A DNA stretch of 64,000 nucleotides from assembly GCF_055900595.2 (NCBI RefSeq), contig NZ_CM148325.1. The stretch is one strand, 5' to 3'. Each line of letters opens with the position of its first letter. Position 1 is the first letter of the stretch. The translations under genes and the position numbers were made by a program. Positions 1,003 through 61,405 of this stretch are shown here, piece by piece. The notes beneath the pieces were generated by a model. That model searched no databases, had not been told where the DNA came from, and was given only the letters and a program-made list of their open reading frames with translations.

Positions 1003-1041
1003 ACACCGTCTTTCTGGTGTGTTGATAGCAAACCTCCCGGT

Positions 1042-1904: not shown

Positions 1905-2402
1905 ATGAACGGACTCACGGCAACGGGTATAACCGTCGGTATTTGTGCAGGGCTTTGGCAGTTAGTGTCTTCACATGTCGGGCTCTCTCAGGGATGGGAA
2001 TTATTAGGAACCATTGGCTTCGTCGCCTTTTGCAGTTTTTATGCCGCAGGCGGCGGTAAATCGGGGTTTATCAGAAGCCTGGCGGTTAATTATTCCGGGA
2101 TGGTGTGGGCGTTTTTCGCCGCGCTGGCTTCCGGTTGGCTGGCCTCGGTGAGTGGGCTTTCCGTGTTCTGGGCAAGCGTGATGACTACCGTGCCTTTCTC
2201 AGCTGTAGTGGTCTGGCAAGGGCGTTTCTGGTTACTGTCATTCATTCCCGGAGGCTTTCTCGGCATGACGCTGTTTTTTGCCAGCGGGATGAACTGGACG
2301 GTGACATTACTGGGTTTTCTGGCGGGTAACTGCGTGGGAATAATTTCAGAATATGGCGGACAAAAATTAAGCGAAGCGACGACTAAACGCGACGGGTATT
2401 AA
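1905..2402 (+). CDS. yahC: Inner-membrane protein YahC
   Basis: 165-aa ORF, strongly hydrophobic with several predicted TM helices; SD AGGGGAA upstream; position matches yahC. Confidence 0.75.
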   Translation: MNGLTATGITVGICAGLWQLVSSHVGLSQGWELLGTIGFVAFCSFYAAGGGKSGFIRSLAVNYSGMVWAFFAALASGWLASVSGLSVFWASVMTTVPFSAVVVWQGRFWLLSFIPGGFLGMTLFFASGMNWTVTLLGFLAGNCVGIISEYGGQKLSEATTKRDGY

Positions 2403-2493
2403 AAGTTATTCAAAAATGATTATCTATCTTTAACCGATACCTCTACAGTCATAGCTGGAGAAATTCATAGTAGATAATGGCGGGAATGGTTTA

Positions 2494-27883: not shown

Positions 27884-28810
27884 TTAACTTTCTATTTTTA
27901 CTCTTTTCTCCACCATAAAATCAATAAAAGCACGAACTTTAGAGGGCATTCTCACCCGTGATGAAACATATATATAAAATCCAGAAAATGAAACGGCCCA
28001 ATCCTCAAGAATCGGCTGTAACTTGCCCGCATTGATATGTTCAGCGATTGCAAAATCCAGATGTTGAATGATACCCGTTCCATTCAGCGCCATTCGTATC
28101 ATGCTTTCGTCATCATTAGAAATATACTTACCTGACACCTCTATTTCGAACTCTTCATTACCCCCCACAACATTCGAAAACTCCCATGCTGAGAGTGCAC
28201 CGCTACTTTTATGCCGCAACCGAAGACAATTATGGTTACTCAATTCCTGAGGAGTTTCAGGAATACCGTGTTCTTTTAAATAATCTGGCGATGCCACAGT
28301 AACCAGTTTTATAAGCGGAGAAACAGGAACGGCAGTCATATGCTCATCCAGTCCTTGCTCAAGACGTATGCCCACATCACAGCCGTCCGCAATAATGTTA
28401 GATAAACCGTCATCCATAATGAGTTCTATCTTTGTTTTGGGGTAACGAGTAAGAAACTCGCCAATATGAGGCTCAATAAGCATCCTTGCTGCAACACGGG
28501 AGGAATTTATTCTCAACAGTCCTGTAGGTTCAAGTTGGGTATCACCGACATCTTTCAACGCATCATCAATTTGCCCCAAAGCCGACACCAGCACTTCATA
28601 CAGATGCTGTCCTTCCTCAGTAAGCGACATATTGCGGGTCGTACGGTATATCAGCTTGGTGTTAAGACGTTCCTCAAGAGATTTTAAATTCTGGGACAAT
28701 GCGGCCCGCGTAATACCCATTTCAGAGGCTGCCCTGGAAAAACTGCCGGCACGAACAATCAGCGCAAACCAGGCAAGAGAAGGCAAAATTGAAGGCTCTA
28801 TTTTCATCAT
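27884..28810 (-). CDS. LysR-family transcriptional regulator
   Basis: Start taken at MMKIEPSILPSLAWFALIVRAGSFSRAA; LysR HTH and C-terminal effector domain. Confidence 0.8.
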   Translation of the reverse strand: MMKIEPSILPSLAWFALIVRAGSFSRAASEMGITRAALSQNLKSLEERLNTKLIYRTTRNMSLTEEGQHLYEVLVSALGQIDDALKDVGDTQLEPTGLLRINSSRVAARMLIEPHIGEFLTRYPKTKIELIMDDGLSNIIADGCDVGIRLEQGLDEHMTAVPVSPLIKLVTVASPDYLKEHGIPETPQELSNHNCLRLRHKSSGALSAWEFSNVVGGNEEFEIEVSGKYISNDDESMIRMALNGTGIIQHLDFAIAEHINAGKLQPILEDWAVSFSGFYIYVSSRVRMPSKVRAFIDFMVEKRVKIES

Positions 28811-28966
28811 TGTAAACCTTAACTTAACACTGTGATAGATATTAGACCATTGATGATAACCAATACAAGTCATACTATTACGCCGTTCGCGATATGAACA
28901 CGAATGCCAGTTGCGGATAATAGAAATGATATTTAAATCTGTTTAGGCAAATCCCTGGAGCTTGAA

Positions 28967-29887
28967 ATGAAAACGGTTTCGATAAAACACACTTACTGGG
29001 ATATAGCTGCTGATATCTATTTCCCTGACGATTTTAATAGTGAAAAAAAGTATCCTGCCATTATCAGTGCCCATCCAATTGGAAGCTGCAAAGAACAGAC
29101 ATCGGGTAGTGTGTATGGTGCCGCCCTGGCAAAAGCTGGCTTTATCGTCATTGCTTTTGATGCCAGTTTTCAGGGAAGCAGCGGTGGAGAACCGCGTTAT
29201 CTGGAAGATCCAACAATGCGAGTAAAAGACTTCAGCATTGTCGTTGATTACCTTACCACCTTACCTTACGTTGATGCCGGGCGTATTGGTGTACTGGGTA
29301 TTTGTGGTGGAGGTGGATATGCCATTAATGCCGCAATGACAGAACGTCGGATTAAAGCCATTGGTACTGTCACGGGTGCAAACTACGGGCGTCTTATGCG
29401 TGAGGGATTTACAGCGTTTAATCCTATCGGAGCACTCGAAGCAATGGCGCAACAAAGAACAGACGAAGCTAACGGCGCAAAACTTCGCGTAGATGATTTG
29501 CTCCCTTCTTCTCCGGAAGCAGCTCTTGAAGCGGGATTAACAGAAATAGACCTTTTTGAAGCAACAGAATATTATCGTTCACCACGAGGCTGTGCGCCTA
29601 ATGGGGTAAATCGTTCGCTATTTTCACATCAGACTGTTGCCGTGGGCTGGGATGCTTTTCATCTTGCAGAAGTCCTGTTAACTCAACCACTAATGGTTGT
29701 AGTGGGCGATAGAGTGGGCGCTTTTGGTGCCTATCGTGACGGCTGCGAAATTATTGGTCGTGCAGCCTCAAAACATAAAGAGTTGGTCGTGGTTGAAGGT
29801 TATTCACATTACGACCTGTATGATAAGCCAGAACCTGTGAAACAGGCGCTCGATAAATTAATTCCTTTTTATAAAACACATTTGTAA
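28967..29887 (+). CDS. Alpha/beta hydrolase, dienelactone-hydrolase-like (Cys nucleophile)
   Basis: 306 aa; nucleophile elbow GICGGGGYA typical of DLH-family hydrolases; divergent from the LysR gene. Confidence 0.7.
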   Translation: MKTVSIKHTYWDIAADIYFPDDFNSEKKYPAIISAHPIGSCKEQTSGSVYGAALAKAGFIVIAFDASFQGSSGGEPRYLEDPTMRVKDFSIVVDYLTTLPYVDAGRIGVLGICGGGGYAINAAMTERRIKAIGTVTGANYGRLMREGFTAFNPIGALEAMAQQRTDEANGAKLRVDDLLPSSPEAALEAGLTEIDLFEATEYYRSPRGCAPNGVNRSLFSHQTVAVGWDAFHLAEVLLTQPLMVVVGDRVGAFGAYRDGCEIIGRAASKHKELVVVEGYSHYDLYDKPEPVKQALDKLIPFYKTHL

Positions 29888-30131
29888 TAATCTTACAGGG
29901 AGATTCCTTATCTCCCTGACATTTATCCTTTATTGACTACACAACAATAATGAAATTACTCAAAAAGAAATTTCATTAAAGAAACAAAAAAGCAGTAACT
30001 CAATCATTAAGATTATTAGAAACCCTTTGAAGGGATTATAAATAAAGCCAGAAATCTTGGTTCCAAAGCTGGCAACAACTAACCAGTTAAAACATACGCA
30101 TCAAAATCAGATAAACATTTGAGGTATTGTT

Positions 30132-31274
30132 ATGACAAATAAACACCCATCATTGTTTTCTCCTTTTATGCTGACAGAAAAAATAAAGCTACGTAATCGT
30201 ATCGTTATGGCTCCTATGACAACCTGGTCAGCTAATCCTGATGGAACCATCTCTGAGCAAGAACTCGAATTTTATAAACGTCGCTCACAAAATGTTGGTT
30301 TAGTAATAACAGGATGCACCTATGTCACGCCAAGCGGCATTGGGTTTACTCATGAATTTGCCGCGTATGACGACCGTTTCATTAACAGCCTTGAAAAGTT
30401 AGCTGCTGCAGCCAAAAGTGGCGGTGCTCCGGCTATTTTGCAGATTTTCCACGCCGGTAATAAAGCCATCCCGGAGCTTGTGCCAAATTACGATGTTATT
30501 AGTGCCAGCGCATCAAGCGTAAAATCTGGTGACTTTATGAAGAGAGTGGTACAAAGCAGGGAAATGACTGAAAACGAAATTCAGGAAACCATTAGAGCAT
30601 TCGGAGATGTCACAAAAAGGGCGATTAAAGCAGGTTTTGATGGCGTTGAACTTCATGGTGCGCACGGATTCCTTCTGCAGAATTTCTTCTCCCCTCTATT
30701 TAACCAGCGTAATGACCGATGGGGAGGAGATCTTGAAGGACGTATGCGCTTCCCGCTGGCCGTATTACAGGAAGTAAAAAATGTAGTCTATGAATATGCG
30801 ACAAAGCCCTTTGCCATCGGTTACAGAATATCTCCTGAAGAATCTGTAACAGGGGGTCTGCGGATAGAGGATACTTATAAACTCCTTGATCGGCTCATTT
30901 CATCCGGTATTTCGTATATACATACCTCGCTGGTCAGTATTAACGATAGCTACCCTGTTGAGTCGCCAAATGGCCCCCGAACTATTGAATTGATTTTAGA
31001 TCATATTGCAGGCAGAGTGCCGGTAATCGCCGCAGGTAAAATACGCACACCGTCTCAGGCTCAAGAAGCAATTTCCGCTGGCCTGCCACTTGTTGCAATC
31101 GGTAAAGGGCTGGTAATAAATCCAGAATGGGTGACTTTAGCTGAATCAGGTAGAAGTCATGAAATTCAAACAGCCCTTAATCCACAACGCGTTCCTGAAT
31201 TAACCATTCCGGATAAACTATGGGATCAAATTCAGGCATCGAAAGGAACTGGCTGGTTTCCGTTAATGGATTAA
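30132..31274 (+). CDS. NADH:flavin oxidoreductase (Old Yellow Enzyme family)
   Basis: 380 aa; OYE motifs (MAPMTTW, LHGAHGFLLQNFFSP...NxRxDxWGG). Confidence 0.8.
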   Translation: MTNKHPSLFSPFMLTEKIKLRNRIVMAPMTTWSANPDGTISEQELEFYKRRSQNVGLVITGCTYVTPSGIGFTHEFAAYDDRFINSLEKLAAAAKSGGAPAILQIFHAGNKAIPELVPNYDVISASASSVKSGDFMKRVVQSREMTENEIQETIRAFGDVTKRAIKAGFDGVELHGAHGFLLQNFFSPLFNQRNDRWGGDLEGRMRFPLAVLQEVKNVVYEYATKPFAIGYRISPEESVTGGLRIEDTYKLLDRLISSGISYIHTSLVSINDSYPVESPNGPRTIELILDHIAGRVPVIAAGKIRTPSQAQEAISAGLPLVAIGKGLVINPEWVTLAESGRSHEIQTALNPQRVPELTIPDKLWDQIQASKGTGWFPLMD

Positions 31275-31746
31275 ATATCTATTACTCTCCCGAGAGTAAA
31301 ACTATCAAACCAATGAGTAACCGATACAGCCTCGCAAATTCTTTCAGATAATTAACCCGTCACTGCGGCACGTTCTCTCATAAGGCGTGCCTGCTGTGTA
31401 ATCCAGTATGTATCCGGCATACTTGACGGTTTAATAGAACTCAATTCCTTTCCCAGGTTACCAACAACGATATCTTGTATAACACCCCAGGAGATACGAC
31501 ATTATGATGAGATGAGGTATGCTCCTCAGCGCCAATCAACGCCAGGGCTGGGCCAGTTTTGAGATCAGACTCATTCCCGGACTGACTTCAGGCGACATAT
31601 ATCAATGACATTGGGGCAATAAAAGATAGCCGATGTAATACATCTATTCAAATTTGTGATACATGTCAAAAAATTGGTTGACCAAACTCGTTATTTATAT
31701 AAGGGCACTTACGAAGTGCACTCTTTTTTAAAGCGAGGAAGTACCA

Positions 31747-31848
31747 ATGAAAGAGAATAAAGTACAGCAAATCAGTCATAAACTGATTAATATCGTTGTT
31801 TTGGTAGCAATTGTAGAATACGCCTATTTATTCCTCCATTTCTATTAA
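31747..31848 (+). CDS. ykgR: Small membrane protein (33 aa), YkgR-like
   Basis: SD GAGGAAG 7 nt before ATG; MKENKVQQISHKLINIVVLVAIVEYAYLFLHFY with one hydrophobic helix. Not in the ORF track because under 60 aa. Confidence 0.5.
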   Translation: MKENKVQQISHKLINIVVLVAIVEYAYLFLHFY

Positions 31849-32183
31849 TAACGGCAATAAACTGTTCATTTCAGCAATATTCAAAAGATGCATCCTCTCC
31901 CTTTTTTTTAAGTAATTATTATATCCGTGGGAGAGGAATACACGCTGTCAGGTAATCAATCAAACTGCGATAAATCATCGGCCAGTAAAGTGGAGATAGC
32001 CTCCATTCTCGAAAAATTCATACTCTCAGCGAAACCATCATCAATCACTCATCCAGGCGTTTATGGGAGCGTCGCCAATGGCTGCTAACAATGCCAGACT
32101 TCCCCGTTGCCGAAATTCCACATACCACAAATGGTCACAGGGATTGGGTGTTGAAATGATCCGGATGAGCATGTATCTTTATA

Positions 32184-32201
32184 GTTATGTTATAACATAA
32201 C
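32184..32201. promoter_or_regulatory. Zur box (zinc-uptake-regulator operator) upstream of ykgM
   Basis: Perfect 18-bp palindrome GTTATGTTATAACATAAC 12 bp before the ykgM start; ykgM-ykgO are the zinc-independent L31/L36 paralogs known to be Zur-repressed. Confidence 0.7.
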
Positions 32202-32212
32202 AGGTAAAAATG

Positions 32213-32476
32213 ATGAAACCCAATATCCATCCTGAGTATCGTACTGTGGTGTTCCATGACACCAGTGTTGATGAGTACTTTAAAATCGGCTCGACTATCA
32301 AAACAGACCGTGAGATTGAGCTGGATGGCGTAACGTATCCGTACGTGACAATTGATGTCTCTTCGAAATCGCACCCGTTCTATACAGGGAAGCTGAGAAC
32401 AGTGGCATCAGAAGGAAATGTTGCACGGTTCACCCAACGTTTTGGTCGTTTTGTTAGCACGAAAAAGGGGGCGTGA
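32213..32476 (+). CDS. ykgM: 50S ribosomal protein L31 type B (zinc-independent paralog)
   Basis: [59 protein letters not shown]... lacks the Zn-binding cysteines. Confidence 0.9.
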
Positions 32477-32616
32477 TGAAAGTCCTTAACTCTCTGCGTA
32501 CCGCAAAAGAACGCCATCCAGACTGTCAGATTGTGAAGCGAAAAGGACGGCTGTATGTGATTTGTAAATCTAATCCACGTTTTAAGGCCGTTCAGGGGCG
32601 TAAGAAAAAGCGTTGA
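32476..32616 (+). CDS. ykgO: 50S ribosomal protein L36 paralog (46 aa)
   Basis: ATG overlaps the ykgM stop (ATGA); [46 protein letters not shown]. Not in the ORF track because under 60 aa. Confidence 0.85.
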
Positions 32617-32644
32617 TTCATAATTCGCCGGATTAACGATATTT

Positions 32645-32697
32645 GTCTGATTAATAATCAGACCGGATTAATGTTGGTGTGTTTATAACACCAACAT
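32645..32697 (+). terminator. Tandem hairpins after ykgO (possible terminator)
   Basis: GTCTGATT-AAT-AATCAGAC (8-bp stem) then ATGTTGGTGT-GTTTATA-ACACCAACAT (10-bp stem), followed by TTAATTTCC. Confidence 0.4.
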
Positions 32698-33134
32698 TAA
32701 TTTCCTGGGGATATATTCTTCCTGTTCATTTAAAGCCAACTGCCTGACGTTTCTCTCCGAATATTCCATTATATTAATGTTGATTTGTTGACCAGCTTCG
32801 CCCCTGTATGCTGGTATCAACTCTCTTTTAGACTGAACAAGCCACTCCGCCCCCTCCCTTTGCGGAGCAGCCTGCATTTACACTCAAACTGTTAAGATGA
32901 TAAATGTGGTAAATCTGTTGGTACTAACATAAAAACGTTTACGCCACAGGAACAGCCTGATCCACCAGTAACCCCATCGCCGACGTTCGAGTGCCAGTTA
33001 GAGTAACGCGCACAGATGACTGCACGCAGTGCCCTGTCAAAGAGGCCATCGTTCCTGTGACAGCTGGCAGCCTTCGTTTAACTTCACTTAATTTGGCTCT
33101 TGGGGGGCTTACCGAACAGGGTAATGACTCCAAC

Positions 33135-33638
33135 TTATTGATAGTGTTTTATGTTCAGATAATGCCCGATGACTTTGTCATGCAGCTCCACCGATTTTGA
33201 GAACGACAGCGACTTCCGTCCCAGCCGTGCCAGGTGCTGCCTCAGATTCAGGTTATGCCGCTCAATTCGCTGCGTATATCGCTTGCTGATTACGTGCAGC
33301 TTTCCCTTCAGGCGGGATTCATACAGCGGCCAGCCATCCGTCATCCATATCACCACGTCAAAGGGTGACAGCAGGCTCATAAGACGCCCCAGCGTCGCCA
33401 TAGTGCGTTCACCGAATACGTGCGCAACAACCGTCTTCCGGAGCCTGTCATACGCGTAAAACAGCCAGCGCTGGCGCGATTTAGCCCCGACATAGCCCCA
33501 CTGTTCGTCCATTTCCGCGCAGACGATGACGTCACTGCCCGGCTGTATGCGCGAGGTTACCGACTGCGGCCTGAGTTTTTTAAGTGACGTAAAATCGTGT
33601 TGAGGCCAACGCCCATAATGCGGGCAGTTGCCCGGCAT
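33135..33638 (-). CDS. insB: IS1 transposase InsB (expressed as InsAB' by frameshift)
   Basis: 167 aa, [64 protein letters not shown]... Confidence 0.95.
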
Positions 33639-33832
33639 CCAACGCCATTCATGGCCATATCAATGATTTTCTGGTGCGTACCGGGTTGAGAAGCGGTGTA
33701 AGTGAACTGCAGTTGCCATGTTTTACGGCAGTGAGAGCAGAGATAGCGCTGATGTCCGGCGGTGCTTTTGCCGTTACGCACCACCCCGTCAGTAGCTGAA
33801 CAGGAGGGACAGCTGATAGAAACAGAAGCCAC
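33557..33832 (-). CDS. insA: IS1 protein InsA
   Basis: 91 aa, [43 protein letters not shown]... (zinc finger + HTH). Confidence 0.95.
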
Positions 33833-33949
33833 TGGAGCACCTCAAAAACACCATCATACACTAAATCAGTAAGTTGGCAGCATCACCAAAACCTGCAAAA
33901 ACTCTTAGATCTTTTACAGAGCGAAGATGGATTCAGTAGCAATAAGAAG

Positions 33950-36949
33950 TTGATTGGCAAATTTCGTTTGTTACCGAAAAAATTAACCACAAAGAAAAAA
34001 CATGAATCCCAAAATGGACACGTCCACTTTTCTAATCCTAAACGAGCAGCCGACCATTTATTTAATAATTTTGATCTGATACCAGAGTTTCGTATTATTG
34101 GTGACTTCCCGGTTGATAGTCACATTATCTCTGCACTATGGATTAACATGGTCGGGCATAAATTTGATGCCAGCTTAGATAACTGTTGCTATGGCGCGCG
34201 GCTAAAGCGTATTCGTAATGATGAATTATTTAGCAATGAGCAGGATAATCCATTCCATATCAGTGCAGTGGGTTCTTTTAGCCCCTACTTCCAGCCCTAC
34301 CAAAAATGGCGTGGTGATGGCTTAAAAGCTATACGTGACGAGTTGGAAAAAGATCGTGACATTATCGCCGCCTCACTGGATTTAAAAAGTTACTATCATT
34401 TTATTGATCCACTGGCTATAACCTCTGATGATCTCTATAACACACTAAACATAAAACTGACTGAGGATGAAAAAGCGTTTACTGCACAGTTAGCAGTATT
34501 CTTAAAGCACTGGTCTGACGGCGCAGCGGCATTTGGAAAGAAAATAGCGTACAAAACACCTGTTATTAATGGTGGTCTGGTCATTGGATTAACAGCCAGT
34601 CGGATCATTTCAAATATATTGCTACACCATTGGGATAAATTAGTCATTGAAAAACTATCACCAATTCACTACGGTCGTTATGTCGATGATATGTTCCTTG
34701 TAATACGCGATACAGGGAAAATTACTAATAATCACGAATTTATGTTATTGCTGCAAGATAGGCTTGGCAATGATTGCGTTTATTTGAAAAACGAGCAAAA
34801 ACAAATATGGCAAATACAGCAGGGCGAGCATTTCCAGGGTAAGACCACCATCCAGTTACAATCCGATAAGCAAAAACTTTTCGTGCTTCAAGGGAGGGCT
34901 GGAATAGACCTGCTCGACAGTATCGAAAAGGAGATCTACGAGCTTTCTAGTGAACACCGCTTGATGCCTTCACCGGATCAACTGGAACACTCAACCGCAG
35001 CTAAAGTCCTTTCCGCTGCCGGTAGTGTAGGTGAAAATGCCGATACTCTGCGCCGTGCAGATGGATTAACCATTCGTCGTTTGGGCTGGTCACTGCAATT
35101 ACGCTACGTTGAAACACTGGCACGAGATCTGCCTCCAAGTGAATGGAAAGAACAGCGGGAAGAGTTTTATCAGTTTGCCTACAACCATATTCTTAGGGCT
35201 GATAATCTATTTGCACATTTTAGTTATCTGCCAAGGCTGCTTGGCTTTGCTATCAGTATGAATGAATGGCAGCACGCGGAAACAATTGTACTTAAAGCTT
35301 ACGAATCCATCAACCTGTTGGCATCGGTGATTACTTCAGGTAAGGAAGTGAATATAAATGGTTGCAAAACTCGAGCAGTAAATGATCTTTGGCGCTGTAT
35401 AAAAGGCACATTAAGCTGGCTATTTGTTGATGCAGCGACACGATATTACAGTCCTGACAGATTATTTCTTGATAAACGTTCAAAGAAAGAAGAGTGCCTT
35501 GCGGATACATTTTTTAATCATATTTCACAAAGTCTGACGAATCTAAAGGATTTACTGGATCTTCGCTTTGATTCAGCAGATTTTTATTTAAAAGCGCCAT
35601 TGGTAGCTCGAGCTGATTTAGCAAAGGAACCTTATAAACAGATCGTAAAGAGTCAGTCGGCAGAAAAACTTGTTAATCAGCGTGATAGTAAAAAAGAAGT
35701 TAAAATACTGAAATTAATGAGCGACTCATCGCTTATTGATATTGACGTTATTAAGCTATTTTTGAAATCAACCAAGAATACCCGACTGGAAAAAGTGGCT
35801 AAAGGAAATCGTAAGAACGAAAGTTACCTACCTTACATTTTCCCTACACGTCCTTTAACACCCGCTGAAATATCAGAACTGGCCCCCGAATGTGTTGGAT
35901 TACCCTCCACATCCGACAAAAAACCAGATGAGAGACCGTCCACCATTTGGGCAAAATATACTCAAGCATTACGCGGAGTATGGATCAAACCGACGTTGCT
36001 AGCATCGGAGCAGGACTCAGATGAAGCGACAAAAAAAGCTCGGCCTAAGAAATTCATTCATATTGGCACAGACAGGAAACATAAAGTTGTCGTTGCGCTA
36101 ACCAGCATTAAAACAGAGGAGGACGACTGGGCTAAAATGGCCTGCAATAAATCTAACTTGTCCCGTTCAAGGTACCAGCGGATTTCTGAACTGGTTAATG
36201 CAACATTGAAACTATCTCCTAAACCTGATTATGTTTTATTCCCTGAGCTTTCAATCCCGTTACGCTGGGTTAACAGTATTGCTGATCGTTTGAGTTCGGC
36301 GGGTATCAGTCTAATTGCGGGAACAGAATACCGCCACTTAGACGATAATCAACTGAAGAGTGAGGCCGTACTTGTCCTTTCAGATAACAGACTCGGCTAT
36401 CCAGCGAGTGTCAAAATATGGCAACCCAAGCTGGAACCCGCCGTAGGTGAAGATGAGGCATTATTTTCAACTTATGGTAAGTCTTGGGACTCGACACTTA
36501 ATGTTAAACAACGTAAGCCGGTATATATTCATCATGGCGTCAATTTTGGCGTTATGATTTGCTCTGAACTCCAGAATAGTAAAGCGAGGATCCGTTTTCA
36601 GGGCGCACTCGATGCATTAATGGTATTGAGCTGGAATAAAGATCTAGATACGTTTGCATCGTTGATTGAATCAGCAGCGCTGGATATTCATGCCTATACT
36701 ATTTTAGTGAATAACCGAAAATACGGCGATAGTCGCGTACGTTCCCCGGCAAAAGAACCCTTTATGCGTGATATTGCTCGTGTGAAGGGCGGTGATAATG
36801 ACTTTGTGGTCGCTGCAACGCTGGATATCGACTCGTTAAGGGCATTTCAGAGCAGGGCAAAACGCTGGCCTAAAGGCGGCGATAAATTCAAACCGTTACC
36901 TGAAGGATTCCAGTTGGCAAAGAACCGCAAAAAGCTACCGCCAAAATAA
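33950..36949 (+). CDS. Reverse transcriptase with C-terminal nitrilase (C-N hydrolase) domain; defence-associated RT, DRT type 1 / UG1-like; possibly 5'-truncated by IS1
   Basis: RT motifs in order: A (ASLDLKSYYHFID), B (GGLVIGLTASRIISNILL), C (YGRYVDDMFLV). C-terminus has a nitrilase-type Glu/Cys pattern (YVLFPELSIP ... GVMICSELQ). ORF begins at TTG 63 bp after IS1 and the frame is open into IS1. Confidence 0.8.
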   Translation: MIGKFRLLPKKLTTKKKHESQNGHVHFSNPKRAADHLFNNFDLIPEFRIIGDFPVDSHIISALWINMVGHKFDASLDNCCYGARLKRIRNDELFSNEQDNPFHISAVGSFSPYFQPYQKWRGDGLKAIRDELEKDRDIIAASLDLKSYYHFIDPLAITSDDLYNTLNIKLTEDEKAFTAQLAVFLKHWSDGAAAFGKKIAYKTPVINGGLVIGLTASRIISNILLHHWDKLVIEKLSPIHYGRYVDDMFLVIRDTGKITNNHEFMLLLQDRLGNDCVYLKNEQKQIWQIQQGEHFQGKTTIQLQSDKQKLFVLQGRAGIDLLDSIEKEIYELSSEHRLMPSPDQLEHSTAAKVLSAAGSVGENADTLRRADGLTIRRLGWSLQLRYVETLARDLPPSEWKEQREEFYQFAYNHILRADNLFAHFSYLPRLLGFAISMNEWQHAETIVLKAYESINLLASVITSGKEVNINGCKTRAVNDLWRCIKGTLSWLFVDAATRYYSPDRLFLDKRSKKEECLADTFFNHISQSLTNLKDLLDLRFDSADFYLKAPLVARADLAKEPYKQIVKSQSAEKLVNQRDSKKEVKILKLMSDSSLIDIDVIKLFLKSTKNTRLEKVAKGNRKNESYLPYIFPTRPLTPAEISELAPECVGLPSTSDKKPDERPSTIWAKYTQALRGVWIKPTLLASEQDSDEATKKARPKKFIHIGTDRKHKVVVALTSIKTEEDDWAKMACNKSNLSRSRYQRISELVNATLKLSPKPDYVLFPELSIPLRWVNSIADRLSSAGISLIAGTEYRHLDDNQLKSEAVLVLSDNRLGYPASVKIWQPKLEPAVGEDEALFSTYGKSWDSTLNVKQRKPVYIHHGVNFGVMICSELQNSKARIRFQGALDALMVLSWNKDLDTFASLIESAALDIHAYTILVNNRKYGDSRVRSPAKEPFMRDIARVKGGDNDFVVAATLDIDSLRAFQSRAKRWPKGGDKFKPLPEGFQLAKNRKKLPPK

Positions 36950-37111
36950 GAAACTGATTTTCGCTATTAATAATCAGGGTATTTTTGCGTGAGATGTCGG
37001 TAAACATGATGTAGCTCTTGCCACTCATGACCAATCGCAGTATCTTTCTCCCGCGTCTGCAAAATCAGGCGTCGGGATTAGCCTCCTGAAGAAATCTTAT
37101 CGGCGACACAT

Positions 37112-37132
37112 GACGCGCCAGCGTCTTTTTTT
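37112..37132 (+). terminator. Putative intrinsic terminator downstream of the RT-nitrilase gene
   Basis: GACGC-GCCA-GCGTC hairpin followed by TTTTTTT. Confidence 0.45.
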
Positions 37133-37295
37133 GTGTTGTTCGCACGGTTACACCTCAATGGTGGGCCGGGCGGGGGCGTCGCAAGACGCGCCAGTGTCCG
37201 ATAAGGCTGGTAAGGCTAACCCTGCCCGGTTCCACCACCCGCGAGATTAGCCTCTCCGGTGGTGGCTTGAACACCCACTTATCGGAGGTTGCCCT

Positions 37296-37766
37296 ATGGC
37301 TACAATCCTCACCACTGACAGCGATTTACTCGATCTATTGACCGTCCCCTTCAATGCCACCACGGATTTCACTGTCCTTGCTGACTACTGCGCCCGCTTT
37401 GCCGAAACCCTGATTGAAACCGACGATCCCGCGCTACGACTGGCGCTCTGCGGGCGGCTTCACGCGGCTCTTGCGCTATTGCAACCCACACTACACGACC
37501 CCATCCCACCGCATCTTACCGAAAGCCTGACCGTGGATACCCTTCCCGCCACACCAGAGCACTTTATTTCCGAACCTGATTCCTTGTGCGAATACTGCCT
37601 CGCACTACTCCAGCTTCTGCTGGAACGTCCGGCGGAACCAAAAATGGAGCAAACCCTGACCGGGCTGCTGTGTGAGCTGGTCTGGTATTTCACGGAAGGA
37701 CTCAAAGCCCCGCGCTGGATGCGTACCGCCGACGGCGTAAAATTTATCAGCGAGGTGGCCGCATGA
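37296..37766 (+). CDS. Hypothetical protein (156 aa), Leu/Ala-rich, acidic
   Basis: ORF preceded by GGAGG SD; no recognisable motif; stop overlaps the start of the ner-like remnant. Confidence 0.45.
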   Translation: MATILTTDSDLLDLLTVPFNATTDFTVLADYCARFAETLIETDDPALRLALCGRLHAALALLQPTLHDPIPPHLTESLTVDTLPATPEHFISEPDSLCEYCLALLQLLLERPAEPKMEQTLTGLLCELVWYFTEGLKAPRWMRTADGVKFISEVAA

Positions 37767-38103
37767 TGCAACAGGACTGGCATTCCGCCGACATTATTGC
37801 GGTGCTGAAAAAGCGGGGAACGCCTCTGGCGGCACAGAGAAAAACTCATTGCGGAAGCGCTGTAAATATCGCCAGAAATCATCTGGTCCTCAAGGTACTT
37901 TGATAGCAAAGGCAAGCTGGCTGGTTCAGTCCGGAGTCTCTCTTCTTGCACTTAAAGAGATGGGAGGATGGGAAACTCTCAAAAAGGTTCAGAGATACGC
38001 TCACCTTTCAGCCGGGCATCTCACCGAGCACGCAAGCAAAATCGGCACGATCATAAGTCGCAATGGCACAAATACGGCACAGGAGGAAGCGTGGTGTATT
38101 TAA
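37763..38103 (+). pseudogene. Frameshifted Ner/Nlp-like HTH gene fused to the 3' end of a tyrosine-integrase gene (deletion scar)
   Basis: Frame A reads MMQQDWHSADIIAVLKKRGTPLAAQ (Ner/Nlp-like N-terminus); frame B reads ...GPQGTLIAKA (Ner-like C-part) joined in frame to SWLVQSGVSLLALKEMGGWETLKKVQRYAHLSAGHLTEHA, a typical integrase C-terminus with the catalytic Tyr. Confidence 0.6.
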
Positions 38104-38121
38104 ATATGGGGTAACTACTTG

Positions 38122-38144
38122 ATTTAAATGGTGCGATAATAGGA
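38122..38144. repeat. Partial copy of the thrW 3' end: distal att repeat of the thrW-integrated element
   Basis: TTTAAATGGTGCGATAATAGGA matches TTTGAATGGTGCCGATAATAGGA at 58841-58863 (tRNA 3' end plus 6 bp) with 1 mismatch and 1 indel. Confidence 0.75.
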
Positions 38145-49602: not shown

Positions 49603-52362
49603 TCATTCTTCAGATGAGTTATAATCTCCTGGCTGGTAATTGAGTACATAAACGTTTATTTGTCGTCCCTGAATACGTGGTGATTTTCTTTGGTATCCAC
49701 GACCGCTGTTTGGTGGGGTTAGCATCCCGGCTTTTTTCAACACTTCAGCAAACTGTTTTGCGTTGAAACCACATGCGATCTCCTTTTCAAATGTGGCCGG
49801 GAATGTGTAGAAAATCATTGGGCTTTCGTCATGTTCTCCACGCTGACGGTATCCGGCTAAATCTTTGATGGGCAAATCTGCCGGGCTGTATGGAAATGGT
49901 GCAAAACGGCTAAGCCCATAGGCATTAAGAAATGCCTCCGTTTGTTCAATAATCTGCTGATGTTCTTTGTTACCTGTGCCGAACTCGCGCAACCATGCGT
50001 TATAGCTGTGCTGTATCGCATCACGGCATGTCTGAGCATCCCAGCCTGTTACAACCTCGCCTAACAGCAATGCGGCCTCCAGAATGGCAAATCGCGCGGC
50101 TACACGGTGAACCTGCTCACCATAATCGGATGGGATCAGGCTTCTCCATCTGCTTTCGCAATCACGAACGGTTTTAATAGCCTGTTGCTGGTGGTCTGCC
50201 AGCCATTTAATCCACTCACGCCCGGACGCGCCGTGGTGATGCTGGTAAGCGTCTTTCAGTGCGTCTGCGTGCTGTTTTCCGTTCTGGTAATCGTGAAAGC
50301 GTACTGCTTTACTCAACGGAATATTCAGCAGTCGCACCAGTTGCCCGGCTTTGGTTTTTCGCCCGGAAGTAGCGATAAATGTTTCTAAATCCATTTCTCC
50401 GGTGCTGATTGCCACTGTACGCCAACGTTTTAGATCCCGGTTTCCACCATCTTTAGCGCCTTGCAGTTTCCCTACACCGTTAAATAACGCATAGGCAGAC
50501 TGTGAAACGCTGACAGGATCAGCGCCCTGACCAACTTCATCAAGCGGCATTAGTCCGTCATTGTGGGCGGCGGCCTCATTTGCCAGCCCCAGCGCGGTTC
50601 CGTACCACGTCAGCCGCAGTAAATCAGGGTTGCCGTATAAGCTGCTCGCCACGTTTGCCGTGGTGGTCTTACCTGCGCTCGACTGCTCATAGAAATGAAT
50701 GCCGAACCCGTCAGCGCCCACCAGCCCAATCAATGGCGCTGCCAGTGCTGCGCCGATCCCGGTCATCATTGAATAGTTACCAAAGGCCAGACGCGCCACG
50801 TTATCACGCCAGCTTTTCGCGCTCCCTGAGACGGTATATCCGGCTGCGGCTGAGCTTCTCCCGCTGAACAGCACAGGATTTTCAGGTGTTCCGATGATTT
50901 CCCCATCAGGCATGATGTACGCTCCGCATTGCCAGCCAGTGGCATGAGCAACACGCCACAATTCACGAGAGCCACTGCGTTGTAGCCAGTCTGCCAGTAT
51001 TGCTCTGAGGCTGCTTTTGGTCGTGACATTTACCCCACCAGCTTTAAGTGTGCGCCATCCTTCACGTTCACCAATATCAGCCAGTGGAATGGCAGCGGTT
51101 GTCGGCGTTTCAGAACCAAACGACAGCCAGCGAAGAATGAGATACTGGTCTTTATCGTCTCTGCCAGTACCGATAACGCTTAACGGAGAACATAACCAGC
51201 TTTCGTTATTGATGATTTCTCCACTCTGGCTGTCAGCTCTCGGAGATACCCAATAAATACCATCCTCGCGGCTTTCTATTCTTGGTTTCAGTGGGTCGGT
51301 ATCCATAACCTTAAAATCGCTTCCCTCAATGGTCTGTGGCTCCTGTTTCACGCCATTACCCTGTGGTTGGTACATTGACTTATTGAACGCTTCTGTGGCG
51401 CATTTAATGCCGTGTTTTTGGTGGTAATCATTCCAGTCTGCTTTGTGATCTGTCGGGGGTAATGCCACCCATCCAGAAACAGATAAAGCTGCTTTTTCTG
51501 CTGCTATTCTCCCCGTGTTTTGTCTTCCTTCGCTGTGGTCGTTATCCGCAGCAATGATGATTTGTGCTGAAGGATATTTATCCCGCAGTACCTGGGCGAC
51601 ATATAACAGGTTCCCGGCATCAATCGCCGCCACTGTCAGCGCCTCTGGACGAATTAAATGGGCAGATAATGCCGTTGCCAGCCCTTCTGCGATTAAGATG
51701 CTCTGTGTTGTTTCTGGTGCGTTTATGGCGTGATATGCCCCCCGCTTTGCTGAACCTGTCAGGAGTCTTTTTTCACCATGTGAGGTAATAGTCTGTGCTG
51801 CTGTGACTGCGCCGGATTTATCCACCAGCGCCAGCAACAGAGATCCATCGGGCAACACGGGGAATGTAAAATCACCTACCCCTTTCGCAACCAGATAATC
51901 AGATTTGCCGTTTACAGCCTTTCTGCGCATGTCATCAAACTGACGGGAAAACGTATCCCGTCTTTGTTGTTCGTCCTTCTCTGCCCTTTTCAGGCGCTCC
52001 TGTTCGCGTCGCTGGCGCTCGGTTTCCAGTTGTTCCCGTTTCTGGCTGGTGGCTTCTGGTGTTTCCGTTGTCCGGTAATCAATACCCAGAACATCAGCGG
52101 CAAGAAGCGCCGCCTCTGTTGTGTCGCAGTTATTTACGCGTTTAATTAAATCCAGCCCATCACCAGCGCCGCACTGATTACAGATGAAGCTACCGCGCCC
52201 GTTGTCATCGAACCGGAATCGATCTTTGCCCCCACATGCAGGGCAGGGAGCATGACGGCGCGGAGAGTCAGGGACATTTATGTTCAGGCAGCCCAGCACA
52301 TGAGGCCAGTTGTTTTCAGACGCACTGATAACCTGACGGATAAGATCAATGTTTCGCATCAC
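49603..52362 (-). CDS. Primase-helicase (P4 alpha-like: Zn-binding primase + TOPRIM + P-loop NTPase)
   Basis: 919 aa; N-terminal zinc ribbon (CPACGGKDRFRFDD...CNQCGAGDGLDLI), TOPRIM-like acidic region (IIIAADNDHSEGRQNTG), Walker A-like SSAGKTTT. Confidence 0.85.
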   Translation of the reverse strand: MMRNIDLIRQVISASENNWPHVLGCLNINVPDSPRRHAPCPACGGKDRFRFDDNGRGSFICNQCGAGDGLDLIKRVNNCDTTEAALLAADVLGIDYRTTETPEATSQKREQLETERQRREQERLKRAEKDEQQRRDTFSRQFDDMRRKAVNGKSDYLVAKGVGDFTFPVLPDGSLLLALVDKSGAVTAAQTITSHGEKRLLTGSAKRGAYHAINAPETTQSILIAEGLATALSAHLIRPEALTVAAIDAGNLLYVAQVLRDKYPSAQIIIAADNDHSEGRQNTGRIAAEKAALSVSGWVALPPTDHKADWNDYHQKHGIKCATEAFNKSMYQPQGNGVKQEPQTIEGSDFKVMDTDPLKPRIESREDGIYWVSPRADSQSGEIINNESWLCSPLSVIGTGRDDKDQYLILRWLSFGSETPTTAAIPLADIGEREGWRTLKAGGVNVTTKSSLRAILADWLQRSGSRELWRVAHATGWQCGAYIMPDGEIIGTPENPVLFSGRSSAAAGYTVSGSAKSWRDNVARLAFGNYSMMTGIGAALAAPLIGLVGADGFGIHFYEQSSAGKTTTANVASSLYGNPDLLRLTWYGTALGLANEAAAHNDGLMPLDEVGQGADPVSVSQSAYALFNGVGKLQGAKDGGNRDLKRWRTVAISTGEMDLETFIATSGRKTKAGQLVRLLNIPLSKAVRFHDYQNGKQHADALKDAYQHHHGASGREWIKWLADHQQQAIKTVRDCESRWRSLIPSDYGEQVHRVAARFAILEAALLLGEVVTGWDAQTCRDAIQHSYNAWLREFGTGNKEHQQIIEQTEAFLNAYGLSRFAPFPYSPADLPIKDLAGYRQRGEHDESPMIFYTFPATFEKEIACGFNAKQFAEVLKKAGMLTPPNSGRGYQRKSPRIQGRQINVYVLNYQPGDYNSSEE

Positions 52363-57466: not shown

Positions 57467-58681
57467 TCATGCGTGTTTTTCAAACACCATATGCACCACA
57501 TTTCCGCCATGCTCGAGAGAATCCATATAGTCGGCATACCATTGAAGCATCTCCCGCCTTCCATCCAGATATTGCGCATGGTTGTATGTGCCACGAATTG
57601 AGTTCTTATCAACGTGAGCGAGCTGCGTTTCTATCCACGCGGTGTTATAGCCCTGCTCATGCAAAATCGTACTCATAGTGTGCCGGAACCCATGACCAGT
57701 TACACGTCCAGCGTAGCCAATGCGCTTAAACACTTGGTTTATGCTGGCCTCGCTCATTGTTTTCCTTGGATCATTGCGCCCGGGAAACATAAGAGGGTAA
57801 TTGCCTGTTATTTCTCTAATCTTCCCAATAAGCGAAAGAGCCTGCTCAGACAATGGCACAATATGAGGCCGCCGCATTTTCATACGTGAAGCGGGTATCT
57901 CCCAGATAGCCTTGTTGAAATCAATTTCATCCCATAATGCGCCACGTAGTTCGCCAGTCCGCAAGCCGGTGATAATCAGTAGACGAGCCGCCATAACAAC
58001 CAATGCGCTTCCTGAGTAACTGGACAATGCCTTGAAAAAATCAGGTAATTCTTTGGCTGTAAGGAAAGGGTAATGATTAGATTCATGGCCTTGCATCGCG
58101 CTAGTAAGGTCTGGTGCAGGGTTATACTCTGCGCGACCAGTGACTATTGCATAGCGGAAAACTTCCCCGCACCGTTGCCTCACTTTTTTGGCTTTTTCTG
58201 TAGCACCGCGCCCCTCGATGCGACGCAGCACATTCAGAAGTTCAAGTGGTTTGATTTCGGCGATGGGTTTTTTGCCAATGTAAGGGAACACATCTTTGTT
58301 GAAGGCTTCGAGGATGTCTGAAGCATAACCAGCAGACCATTTTTTTAATTTGCTGCTGTGCCACTCAAGGGCAATATCTTTGAAGGTGTTGTTTAACTGC
58401 GTTTCCCGGGCAATCTTTTCCTCTCGTTTCGCTTCCATCGGATCGATACCACCAGCGATACCTCTTTTCGCATCTTCACGTTTTGCCCGAGCATCGGCTA
58501 GAGTAACCTCAGGATAAACACCTAGTGCCAATAGCTTCTCTTTACCAGCTACACGATATTTAAGTCGCCAGTATTTACCTCCATTAGGTTTTACCAAGAG
58601 ATACAAACCGCCACCATCGGCCAGCTTGTAAGCCTTCTCTTTTGGCTTGGCTGTGTCTATTTGACGGGCATTGAGTTTCAC
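57467..58681 (-). CDS. int: P4-type tyrosine integrase
   Basis: 404 aa; N-terminal MKLNARQIDTAKPKEKAYKLADGGGLYLLVKPNGGKYWRLKYR; catalytic region HGFRHT...(Y); directly downstream of thrW, same orientation. Confidence 0.9.
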   Translation of the reverse strand: MKLNARQIDTAKPKEKAYKLADGGGLYLLVKPNGGKYWRLKYRVAGKEKLLALGVYPEVTLADARAKREDAKRGIAGGIDPMEAKREEKIARETQLNNTFKDIALEWHSSKLKKWSAGYASDILEAFNKDVFPYIGKKPIAEIKPLELLNVLRRIEGRGATEKAKKVRQRCGEVFRYAIVTGRAEYNPAPDLTSAMQGHESNHYPFLTAKELPDFFKALSSYSGSALVVMAARLLIITGLRTGELRGALWDEIDFNKAIWEIPASRMKMRRPHIVPLSEQALSLIGKIREITGNYPLMFPGRNDPRKTMSEASINQVFKRIGYAGRVTGHGFRHTMSTILHEQGYNTAWIETQLAHVDKNSIRGTYNHAQYLDGRREMLQWYADYMDSLEHGGNVVHMVFEKHA

Positions 58682-58734: not shown

Positions 58735-58846
58735 CTGACCGTAGATTTTGAGGGACTTTAGTAGACGTCAAAAGACGAACGGGGCTTTAATACGCGGATT
58801 ATAAGGGGTTTTGAAAGACTTTAGTAGACTTGGGGAGATGTTTGAA

Positions 58847-58922
58847 TGGTGCCGATAATAGGAGTCGAACCTACGACCTTCGCATTACGAATGCGCTGCT
58901 CTACCAACTGAGCTATATCGGC
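58847..58922 (-). tRNA. thrW: tRNA-Thr (anticodon CGU), thrW; integration site
   Basis: 76-nt minus-strand sequence GCCGATATAGCTCAGTTGGTAGAGCAGCGCATTCGTAATGCG...GGCACCA folds as a cloverleaf with CGT anticodon and CCA end. Confidence 0.9.
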
Positions 58923-59036
58923 CCTGAAAGGACATGTTCACGAACGTGAATCACGGTGGACAAGGTTAAAACTAACCGGGCGATGCGTCAATGGCCTTGT
59001 GAATCAAATGGCTACTTTTGCATCACCCGGTTTTAT

Positions 59037-60290
59037 TTATGCACGAATGGTGTAATCACCAATGCCGATCCACTTGTAGGTGGTCAGAGCTTCCAGCCCC
59101 ATTGGGCCGCGCGCGTGGAGTTTTTGTGTGCTTACCGCAACTTCCGCCCCCAGACCAAACTGGCCGCCGTCGGTAAAACGCGTAGAGGCGTTAACGTAAA
59201 CAGCGGAGGAATCCACTTCGTTAACAAAACGCTGGGCGTTGCGCATATCGCGGGTCAGGATCGCATCGGAATGTTGCGTGCCGTGTTCACGAATATGGGC
59301 GATGGCATCGTCAAGATCGCTGACGATTTTAACGTTCAAGTCTAATGACAGGAACTCATCGTCATACTCTTCGGCTTTAACAGCCACCACCTTCGCTGGG
59401 CCTGCCTGCAACTGCGCCAGCGCAGTTGCGTCAGCGTGTAATGTCACGCCGCTTTCCGCCATTTGCTTGCTTAATGCGGGCAGGAAGCTATCTGCGATGT
59501 TTTTATTTACCAGCAACGTTTCTACCGTATTACACGTGCTCGGGCGCTGAGTTTTCGCGTTGACAATCACTTTCAATGCTTCAGCGATCTCTGCACTTTC
59601 ATCAACGTAAATATGGCATACGCCTATACCACCTGTGATTACCGGAATCGTCGACTGCTCGCGGCACAGTTTATGCAACCCAGCCCCGCCGCGTGGGATC
59701 AGCATGTCGATGTATTTATCCATACGCAGCATTTCACTGACCAGCGCACGGTCAGGATTATCAATCGCCTGCACGGCACCCGCCGGTAAGCCACAGGATT
59801 TCAGGGCGTCCTGAATCACCGCCACCGTTGCCGCGTTAGTGCGACACGTTTCTTTGCCGCCGCGCAGGATCACCGCGTTACCTGTTTTCAGGCACAGCGA
59901 AGCAACATCTACCGTCACGTTCGGGCGCGCTTCATAAATCACGCCAATCACCCCCAGCGGCACGCGACGGCGTTCCAGACGCAGGCCGCTGTCCAGCACC
60001 CCGCCATCAATTACCTGCCCCACTGGATCGGCGAGGTTACACACCTGGCGCACATCATCGGCAATGCTTTTCAGCCGTGCGGGCGTCAGTGCCAGGCGGT
60101 CAAGCATCGCTTCGCTAAGGCCATTGGCACGCGCGTCAGCAACATCCTGGGCGTTAGCATTGAGGATGCTTTCGCTTTGTGCTTCCAGTTCATCGGCGAT
60201 TTTTTCCAGCACGCGATTTTTTTCGCGGCTGGAGAGTTGCGCTAATTTATACGAGGCTTGCTTCGCGGCAATGCCCATTTGTTCCAGCAT
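59037..60290 (-). CDS. proA: Gamma-glutamyl phosphate reductase ProA
   Basis: 417 aa; [36 protein letters not shown]...; ALDH-like fold. Confidence 0.95.
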
Positions 60291-60301
60291 CGGCCTGCTC
60301 C

Positions 60302-61405
60302 TTAACGGGTAATCATATCATCACGGTGAACGGCAACCGGGCCGTATTCATATCCCAGTATTGCATCAATTTCTTGCGAGTGGTGTCCGGCAATACGGCG
60401 TAATGCATCGCTGTTGTAACGACTAACGCCGTGGGCGATATCGCGACCTTCGAGGTTGCAAATGCGGATGACTTCACCACGCGAGAAATTGCCAGTCACG
60501 CTTTTAATGCCTTTCGGCAACAGGGAGCTGCCGCGTTCAAGAATGGCGGCGGTTGCCCCTTCATCTACCGTGATTTCACCCGCAGGCGGCGCACCGAAAA
60601 TCCAACGTTTGCGGTTTTCAAGCGGAGTCGCCTGGGCATGGAACAGCGTACCGACGGAAATACCTTCCATCACATCACCAATGACACCCGGCTTACTGCC
60701 CGCGGCAATAATGGTGTCGATACCCGCACGGCAAGCCACGTCCGCGGCCTGCAATTTAGTGCTCATGCCGCCGGTTCCAAGACCTGAAACGCTGTCACCA
60801 GCAATCGCGCGCAGAGCGTCATCAATGCCGTACACATCTTTAATCAGTTCTGCCTGCGGATTGCTACGCGGATCAGCGGTATACAAACCTTTTTGATCGG
60901 TCAGCAACAACAGTTTATCGGCACCCGCCAGAATCGCCGCCAGCGCCGAAAGGTTATCGTTATCGCCGACTTTAATCTCTGCAGTAGCGACAGCATCGTT
61001 CTCATTGATTACCGGAACGATGTTGTTATCGAGCAGCGCACGCAAGGTGTCGCGGGCGTTCAGGAAGCGTTCACGGTCTTCCATATCAGCACGAGTTAGC
61101 AGCATCTGCCCGACGTGAATGCCATAAATCGAAAACAGCTGTTCCCACAGTTGAATCAGTCGACTCTGCCCTACCGCCGCCAGAAGTTGTTTCGAGGCAA
61201 TAGTCGCTGGCAGTTCCGGGTAACCCAGGTGCTCACGTCCGGCGGCAATCGCCCCCGACGTCACAATTACAATCCGATGCCCGGCGGCATGTAGCTGCGC
61301 GCACTGGCGAACAAGTTCAACGATATGGGCACGGTTCAGGCGGCGCGATCCGCCTGTTAGCACACTGGTGCCGAGTTTTACCACCAGCGTCTGGCTGTCA
61401 CTCAT
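60302..61405 (-). CDS. proB: Glutamate 5-kinase ProB
   Basis: Start taken at [19 protein letters not shown] (367 aa); amino-acid kinase domain plus C-terminal PUA. Confidence 0.95.

Follow-up and report, generated by a model that had tools for sequence, protein, structure and literature searches.

Deletions in the gal region are among the classical IS1-mediated adjacent deletions. Adjacent deletions formed by intramolecular replicative transposition, which leave an IS without direct repeats, are typical of IS1/Tn9 (PMC9330008, section 5.2.1). During the long-term evolution experiment with E. coli (LTEE), every IS-associated deletion that lacked target-site duplications (TSDs) was an adjacent deletion formed in two steps (PMC11708052). 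The UG5-large reverse transcriptase (RT)-nitrilase defence systems, which are class 3 UG/Abi RTs, include the RT-nitrilase+TM system of E. coli E101 (cited in PMC9226505), S. meliloti DRT11 (bioRxiv 10.64898/2025.12.16.694600) and 'DRT5L' (PMC13275509). For the priming serine S402 of DRT1, conservation reportedly does not extend to the other class 3 RTs (PMC13275509).

We analyzed a 64,000-nucleotide stretch of contig NZ_CM148325.1 (assembly GCF_055900595.2; hereafter the window), in which an IS1 element abuts an RT-nitrilase gene. Comparison with related genomes revealed that the window carries a deletion allele: 20,360 bp have been lost, a single intact IS1A stands at the scar, and the RT gene is truncated. 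The features of the locus are as follows.

32651-32877, minus strand: ykgL, the last gene kept on the left side (coordinates taken over from the annotation of Z0117EC0005; 32683-32877 in the ORF list)
33111-33119: left flank ACCGAACAG, in the ykgL-ecpR intergenic region
33120-33887, minus strand: complete IS1 (IS1A variant), 768 bp, terminal inverted repeats matching at 18 of 23 positions, 100% identical to many annotated IS1A copies
33120 and 33887: IRR tip and IRL tip (the insA promoter end), respectively, the IRL tip facing the RT gene
33135-33638, minus strand: insB' frame, 167 aa (ORF list)
33557-33832, minus strand: insA, 91 aa, GTG start (ORF list)
33888-33896: right flank AAAACCTGC, equal to nt 149-157 of the intact RT-nitrilase CDS (from the second base of codon 50 onward)
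33888-36949, plus strand: 5'-truncated UG5-large RT-nitrilase remnant, nt 149-3210 of 3210
33950-33952, plus strand: TTG, codon 71 of the intact gene and the apparent start from first-start ORF calling
37296-38144, plus strand: remainder of an old thrW island downstream of the RT gene (156-aa hypothetical, small HTH gene, integrase fragment and att repeat)
38122-38144: old att repeat of the thrW island

The IS1 is the sole copy within the window, and its sequence is the commonest IS1A sequence. An A6C -1 frameshift motif (AAAAAAC), the complement of which lies at 33575-33581, joins the insA and insB' frames. A sequence-only reading of the window had described a complete IS1 without a TSD, and this description was confirmed: ACCGAACAG and AAAACCTGC agree at 1 of 9, 3 of 8, 3 of 7 or 1 of 10 positions, depending on the repeat length, and no TSD was found around the element even when 8-bp or imperfect repeats were permitted. 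A missing TSD is expected after deletion or recombination. This result argues against a simple insertion and not against the identity of the IS1.

Seven near-identical IS1-free E. coli genomes (e.g., Z0117EC0005) keep the DNA between the two flanks, and the interval measures 20,360 bp in six of them and 20,361 bp in the seventh. Both flanks align to Z0117EC0005 up to the IS1 tips, with their relative orientation kept and identities of 99.7% and 99.9%. Window positions 28072-33119 correspond to 32001-26964 of L004 and positions 33888-38144 to 6603-2346, with 20,360 bp absent between them. After the left flank, the sequence of the IS1-free relatives runs on as ATGACGTACTTACACCC... toward ecpR. 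The deletion spans, in these relatives, from 583 bp upstream of ecpR to nt 148 of the RT-nitrilase gene. It covers ecpRABCDE, ykgJ, yagU, paoABCD, genes for an MFS transporter, an alpha/beta hydrolase and a LysR regulator, and abiEii/abiEi, together with the promoter, start codon and first 148 nt of the RT-nitrilase gene.

The breakpoints fall exactly at the IS tips and the flanks are collinear with the IS-free reference, which is the pattern of an IS-associated deletion. On this alignment, the scar is that of an IS1-associated deletion or a recombination between IS1 copies, in agreement with the sequence-only reading, which had favored these events over a simple insertion. That reading had also placed yagU and the ecp fimbrial operon here by K-12 synteny, and both lie within the missing segment. 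It had named a comparison of the junction with IS1-free relatives as a way to refute its claim; neither the upstream sequence nor the TTG start proved to be shared with them, and the claim stands. A simple IS1 insertion upstream of a native start at TTG 33950, with the TSD lost by mutation, has only the ORF call in its favor. However, it is refuted, with practically no probability left, by the relatives, which differ from the window on each side of the junction and carry 20,360 bp between the flanks, and in which the gene natively begins with an ATG that precedes the TTG by 210 nt. The same differences dismiss a simple insertion with a degenerate TSD. An inversion between inverted IS1 copies was also rejected, as both flanks have the same orientation relative to the reference.

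We consider that the deletion arose, with a probability of roughly 0.55, from an IS1 that had inserted between ykgL and ecpR and then gave rise to an adjacent deletion starting at this left site. In the first step, an ordinary IS1 transposition into the intergenic hot spot would have duplicated ACCGAACAG. In the second step, intramolecular transposition from the IRL end into the RT gene would have deleted everything between, including the right-hand TSD copy, leaving a lone IS1 between unrelated flanks. An IS1 inserted precisely at the left site, with ecpR present, was found in 0 of 5,426 complete E. coli genomes and in none of the GTDB representatives or JGI metagenomes. Likewise, neither exact junction of the window was found in the 5,426 complete E. 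coli genomes, the GTDB species representatives or the JGI metagenomes. With no precursor genome found, the proposed intermediate is hypothetical.

The final product is identical for an adjacent deletion, a recombination between two IS1 copies and a leftward deletion from an IS1 in the RT gene, and since the window copy is the commonest IS1A, it bears no chimeric signature that would separate these routes. Homologous recombination is possible, though distinctly less probable than the adjacent deletion. Two direct IS1 copies, one in the ykgL-ecpR region (TSD ACCGAACAG) and one at RT codons 47-50 (TSD AAAACCTGC), would have undergone a RecA-mediated crossover that deleted the interval and left one hybrid IS1. 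This would give the exact product, a single IS1 between unrelated but collinear flanks, and such recombination is a recognised cause of missing TSDs (PMC11708052). E. coli genomes carry IS1 at a median of 11 places, and the intergenic left site is an IS1 hot spot. Nevertheless, recombination requires that IS1 inserted twice independently, in one orientation and within 20 kb, and that a crossover followed; a single insertion with a subsequent adjacent deletion is the more parsimonious history. In addition, IS1 was present at the RT site in 0 of 260 carriers of the gene and at the exact left site in none.

The opposite order of events appears rather unlikely: IS1 would have entered the RT gene first, inactivating it, and an adjacent deletion from the IRR end would then have run leftward to the ykgL-ecpR region, or, in a one-step variant ('IS-Del'), IS1 would have inserted at the break while the deletion formed. 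An identical product is predicted, and intramolecular target choice by IS1 would also favor the intergenic hot spot, but no IS1 insertion in the RT gene was seen among the 260 carriers. One-step IS movement with deletion and no TSD has been proposed in PMC11708052, although for IS5 and IS481 and not for IS1.

The locus also points to the ykgL-ecpR intergenic region as one in which IS1 lands repeatedly. EA7, PSJ-12 and GF60 each carry an independent IS1, oriented as in the window, at distances of 40, 53 and 60 bp from the window site, respectively. A 9 bp TSD flanks the PSJ-12 copy. No TSD flanks the EA7 copy, and foreign or distant DNA follows it. E. coli EA7 (NZ_CP069709.1) resembles the window in having a same-orientation IS1 without a TSD 40 bp away and in lacking ecp on the far side, whereas its breakpoints differ, its isoform is IS1B, and on the far side it has a UvrD-helicase / type I restriction locus in place of the RT-nitrilase.

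To characterize the truncated gene, we compared it with intact alleles and with profiles of known defence RTs. Annotation of the intact CDS was examined in three genomes and gives a length of 3,210 nt (1,069 aa) in each. The PADLOC profile RT_UG5-nitrilase was covered by the intact protein from 9 to 901 (1,031 bits) and by the window ORF from 79 to 901 (956 bits). The window ORF contains RYVDDMF (the RT YxDD motif) and a VMICSE stretch, and its C-terminal C-N hydrolase has a Glu-Lys-Cys triad (PADLOC RTasNitrilase match, E 2e-43); these residues do not vary across the family alignment. By these profile matches, the gene clearly belongs to the UG5-large RT-nitrilases (class 3 UG/Abi), with the window copy N-terminally incomplete. 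Pfam gave no significant domain for the intact protein, and NCBIfam gave sub-threshold RT matches only. The PADLOC result places the gene in UG5-large and not in DRT1/UG1: Drt1a scored 89 bits against 1,031 bits for UG5, DRT1 proteins are 1,200-1,300 aa long versus 1,069 aa in the intact allele, and only the nitrilase end aligned, with weak similarity, to the DRT1 structure (PDB 9yfd; E 2e-6).

Homologues of 1,064-1,080 aa, with 100% query coverage, occur in many Gammaproteobacteria, and 260 of the 5,426 E. coli genomes carry the RT-nitrilase sequence. A downstream TM partner, which is present in some UG5-large members only, was not seen: the 156-aa product encoded at 37296-37766 is acidic and soluble-looking, and no hydrophobic span was recognized in it by eye. 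A four-gene operon in the neighboring thrW island was considered as unknown cargo and rejected, as it encodes podovirus-type ejection and internal virion proteins.

The 3,062-nt remnant keeps the YVDD motif and the nitrilase Cys-x-Glu, and it has lost the promoter, ribosome-binding site (RBS), ATG and residues 1-49. It differs from Z0117EC0005 by 1 nt, at which Z0117EC0005 is the odd one out. The lost residues rank among the most conserved of the family: 26 of residues 1-49 are invariant in 24 homologues (69-81% identical), and the lost N-terminal part includes the invariant DLLxAYRKAKADxFFE block. AlphaFold2 modeling on a 24-sequence alignment gave a mean pLDDT of 49.7, too poor for a fold search; residues 11-30 and 41-90 were modeled with moderate to good confidence (10-residue block means 68-91), and helices were predicted at 15-31, 35-46 and 48-60.

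The sequence-only reading had noted an RT ORF starting at a TTG 63 bp past IS1, without a clear Shine-Dalgarno (SD) sequence and in a frame open into IS1, and all three features were observed. AAGAAG directly adjoins the TTG and leaves no properly spaced SD. Traced back from the TTG, the frame stays open as far as 33800, which lies 88 nt into IS1, and no in-frame ATG, GTG or TTG occurs between the stop at 33797 and 33950. In IS1-free relatives, the gene begins with an ATG that lies 148 nt before the point that IS1 abuts. Judged from these alignments, the TTG is an ORF-caller artefact and not the native start. An exact-protein look-up of the 999-aa ORF matched only IS1-free contigs (Logan assemblies) with a W10* nonsense codon, which makes a gene caller pick the same TTG and produce the same 999-aa call; the IS1 allele itself was not among these matches. 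Two unrelated N-terminal knockouts of the RT-nitrilase occur in near-identical backgrounds, the IS1 deletion here and W10* in the Logan assemblies.

The gene had been suggested to be either 5'-truncated or driven by an outward promoter of IS1. The first part holds, with 148 nt lost compared to the relatives, and the promoter scan did not support the second. The IS1 pIRL promoter-like site (CTGCCA-16-TATGAT, 33880 to 33853) faces the interior of IS1 and has the RT gene behind it, and no promoter-like site was called across the IS1/RT junction. We regard as very unlikely that the truncated gene is still expressed from a fusion promoter, with TTGGCA at 33874-33879 in the IRL tip as a -35-like element and translation from TTG 33950, to yield a 999-aa RT-nitrilase without residues 1-70 and with retained or altered activity. 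Fusion promoters whose -35 element comes from an IS1 end are known (Prentki et al. 1986, as cited in PMC9330008), the TTGGCA lies 8 nt from the IS1 tip, and the 3,062 nt that remain are intact and still encode YVDD and the nitrilase Cys. However, a recent event explains this intactness equally well, the -10 candidates at 17-18 nt spacing (AAAAAC and AAAACT) match at 3 of 6 positions each with no promoter called, the TTG has no spaced SD, and the invariant N-terminal block is among the lost residues. The remnant is most likely a silent or non-functional pseudogene, one that would have been made recently, since it shows no private mutation and has not decayed. A broader speculation, that the RT-nitrilase is repeatedly lost as costly or autotoxic (in view of the two unrelated knockouts), or that a fusion promoter at the IS1 IRL drives the clipped ORF and yields a deregulated variant, is improbable in our estimate.

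For annotation, these findings suggest that the 999-aa ORF be entered as a 5'-truncated pseudogene and not as a working DRT-type defence gene, and that the strain be counted as negative for the E. coli common pilus (ecp), PaoABC, YagU and the AbiE toxin-antitoxin pair. The locus is a clean example of one IS1 deletion removing a defence gene, a neighboring defence system and an adhesin operon.

Compared with the described RT-nitrilases, the intact E. coli allele shares with DRT1 (PDB 9yfd; PMC13275509) its class and its architecture, an RT fused to a nitrilase. It is like the UG5-large systems in its YVDD motif, C-terminal C-N hydrolase and length of about 1,070 aa, and, like DRT11, it has no adjacent TM gene. 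Unlike the UG5-large defence systems, the window copy is without promoter, start codon and residues 1-49, and a defence role of the E. coli allele itself is putative. With respect to the deletion, the window and the IS1 adjacent deletion described in PMC9330008 are alike in having an intact IS, a deletion from the exact IS tip, no direct repeats and collinear flanks. There is no difference in kind from a classical IS1 adjacent deletion, except that here we infer the direction and number of steps. The mechanism is already known, and the locus represents ordinary, well-understood genome decay with nothing new in mechanism.

The window contains one IS1 copy only, which was complete, with an intact A6C frameshift motif and 100% identity to many annotated E. 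coli IS1A copies.

33120-33887, minus strand: complete IS1, 768 bp, terminal inverted repeats matching at 18 of 23 positions
33557-33832, minus strand: insA frame (ORF call)
33135-33638, minus strand: insB' frame (ORF call)

The 9-nt flanks of the element (ACCGAACAG and AAAACCTGC) were identical at one of nine positions, and at three of eight when an 8 bp repeat was allowed, confirming the sequence-only reading that no target-site duplication (TSD) is present. That reading had proposed a deletion or recombination between IS1 copies rather than a simple insertion. BLAST of the window against L004, the region of the closest IS1-free relative, E. coli Z0117EC0005 (NZ_CP098223.1), bore this out with three matches.

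Window 28072-33119: L004 32001-26964, 99.7% identity
Window 33888-38144: L004 6603-2346, 99.9% identity
Window 58841-61208: L004 2368-1, 99.96% identity

Both flanks had the same orientation relative to L004, which indicates a deletion and rules out an inversion at IS1. Exactly 20,360 bp of Z0117EC0005 DNA were missing from the window; by coordinates, the interval between the flanks was 20,360 bp in six relatives and 20,361 bp in a seventh. The left flank, the ykgR-ykgM-ykgO-ykgL region, is present in almost all E. coli and runs on in Z0117EC0005 beyond window 33119 as ATGACGTAC... toward ecpR. The right flank, together with the 5' half of the RT-nitrilase (RT) ORF, was present in 260 of 5,426 complete E. 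coli genomes. The missing DNA includes yagU and ecp, which K-12 synteny had correctly placed here.

Missing DNA, part 1 (Z0117EC0005 annotation): ecpR-A-B-C-D-E, ykgJ, yagU, paoABCD, MFS transporter, alpha/beta hydrolase, LysR regulator
Missing DNA, part 2: ykgR fragment, abiEii, abiEi, 316 bp abiEi-RT intergenic region, RT gene nt 1-148

The strain should be scored as lacking ecp, pao, yagU and abiE. A copy of 134 bp of the ykgR region (window 31780-31913), 88% identical and annotated as partial ykgR, adjoins abiEii in the relatives (L004 8855-8988) and was lost from the window through the deletion. Both copies are flanked by LysR and alpha/beta-hydrolase genes, suggesting either an ancient duplication of the segment or the edge of an island.

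Two processes classically leave a single intact IS, with no TSD, where DNA has been deleted: adjacent deletion through intramolecular transposition, typical of IS1/Tn9 (PMC9330008), and recombination of one direct IS copy with another (PMC11708052). The two are indistinguishable from the product alone; because the window's IS1 is the commonest variant, it carries no chimeric signature. IS1 was found within the joined range of the left flank in 21 genomes, three of which were inspected in detail. All three copies lie just to the right of the equivalent of window 33119 and are independent insertions.

EA7: +40 bp from the window's site, same orientation, no TSD, unrelated DNA on the far side
PSJ-12: +53 bp, same orientation, 9 bp TSD (GAACACCTG), ecpR intact on the far side
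GF60: +60 bp, same orientation, duplication of about 18 bp (ATGAACACCCATAACCAT), ecpR intact on the far side

The GF60 duplication is unusually long compared with the usual 9 bp. Because IS1 demonstrably lands in the ykgL-ecpR region, we favour a route (probability roughly 0.55) in which IS1 would have inserted into this intergenic region and then produced a rightward adjacent deletion. Recombination between two IS1 copies, which would leave the same scar, is possible though less probable. A leftward or one-step event is unlikely. None of the 260 carriers showed an IS1 inside the RT gene. The exact precursor allele was not found in 5,426 E. coli genomes, GTDB species representatives or JGI metagenomes, so confidence in the rightward route is only moderate.

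In three annotated carrier genomes, the intact RT gene is a 3,210 nt CDS encoding 1,069 aa, and its ATG sits 148 nt upstream of the base abutting IS1 in all three. The suspected 5' truncation is therefore real: the window kept nt 149-3210 (33888-36949, plus strand) and lost the promoter, RBS, ATG and residues 1-49. As had been described, mechanical ORF calling did place a TTG start at 33950, 63 bp from IS1, with no properly spaced Shine-Dalgarno sequence and with the frame open back into IS1; it stays open there for 88 nt, which hold no start codons. A start at this TTG would cost residues 1-70, and in the IS1-free genomes the intact CDS starts at the ATG instead. The proposal that an outward IS1 promoter drives the gene was not upheld: the IRL tip that faces it bears an inward-pointing promoter (CTGCCA-16-TATGAT), and a promoter scan found no sigma-70-like site across the junction. 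A -35-like TTGGCA in this tip is followed at 17-18 nt spacing by AAAAAC or AAAACT (3/6 match).

RT-nitrilase homologues from many Gammaproteobacteria were all 1,064-1,080 aa, and their alignments covered 100% of the query. When 24 homologues with 69-81% identity were aligned, 26 residues within positions 1-49 proved invariant, including those of the block D17-L-L-x-A-Y-R-K-A-K-A-D-x-F-F-E32. The window ORF matched the RT_UG5-nitrilase profile from position 79 only. The AlphaFold2 model was overall too poor for use (pLDDT 49.7); residues 15-60 were predicted as three helices, mostly at moderate confidence. From the sequence evidence we infer that the remnant is probably a pseudogene; the 999-aa ORF would be best annotated as such, and TTG 33950 not as a start. 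The retained part differed from Z0117EC0005 at a single base, where the window agreed with the other relatives, and this lack of private mutation points to a recent event. The base, at window 36575 and in codon 946 of the full-length gene, gives Tyr in Z0117EC0005 and Asn in the window and other relatives; the change is thus private to Z0117EC0005. It lies five residues past the nitrilase catalytic Cys941, and Asn946 is nearly invariant among the 24 sequences.

The IS1-free contigs L008-L012 (Logan assemblies ERR14928254-ERR14928303), with abiEi and abiEii intact, carry TGG to TAG at codon 10 of the RT gene (e.g. L008 2718-3018), which is a second, independent N-terminal knockout. On these contigs the gene caller picks the codon-71 TTG, giving an identical 999-aa product.

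A 20.7 kb integrative element that is absent from Z0117EC0005 separates the old RT-nitrilase island from thrW.

38145-58840: integrative element
38122-38144 and 58841-58863: bounding 23 bp direct repeat
58847-58922, minus strand: tRNA-Thr(CGU)
57467-58681: integrase
49603-52362: 919-aa primase/helicase
48840 to 43672 (leftward): four-gene block for podovirus-type head-morphogenesis, DNA-ejection and internal virion proteins, including an SLT transglycosylase

The element further encodes Ant-like and repressor-like regulators; its overlap with known phages amounts to no more than a few hundred bases. Its size falls short of a full phage, so it is either what remains of a prophage or a satellite-like element with ejection proteins.

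Once relatives are compared, nothing at the IS1-RT junction is anomalous; the mechanism is known, as is the family on which it acted, and no new type of element is involved. With PADLOC profiles, the intact protein scored 1,031 bits against RT_UG5-nitrilase (profile positions 9-901) and only 89 bits against Drt1a, which identifies it as UG5-large, a class 3 UG/Abi RT with a fused C-N hydrolase, and rejects DRT1/UG1; the annotation should read accordingly. Pfam and NCBIfam searches gave no above-threshold matches. YVDD and the nitrilase Cys-x-Glu were found in the window ORF. In DRT1, synthesis activates the nitrilase domain (PMC13275509). The product of the downstream gene (37296-37766) is an acidic protein of 156 aa; no membrane span is obvious in it and PHROGs gave no match, so this E. 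coli UG5-large locus appears to lack the TM partner of some UG5-large systems. Anti-phage protection by UG5-large is known from the E. coli E101 system, which has a TM partner (PMC9226505), and from DRT11 of S. meliloti, which, like the window's locus, has none.
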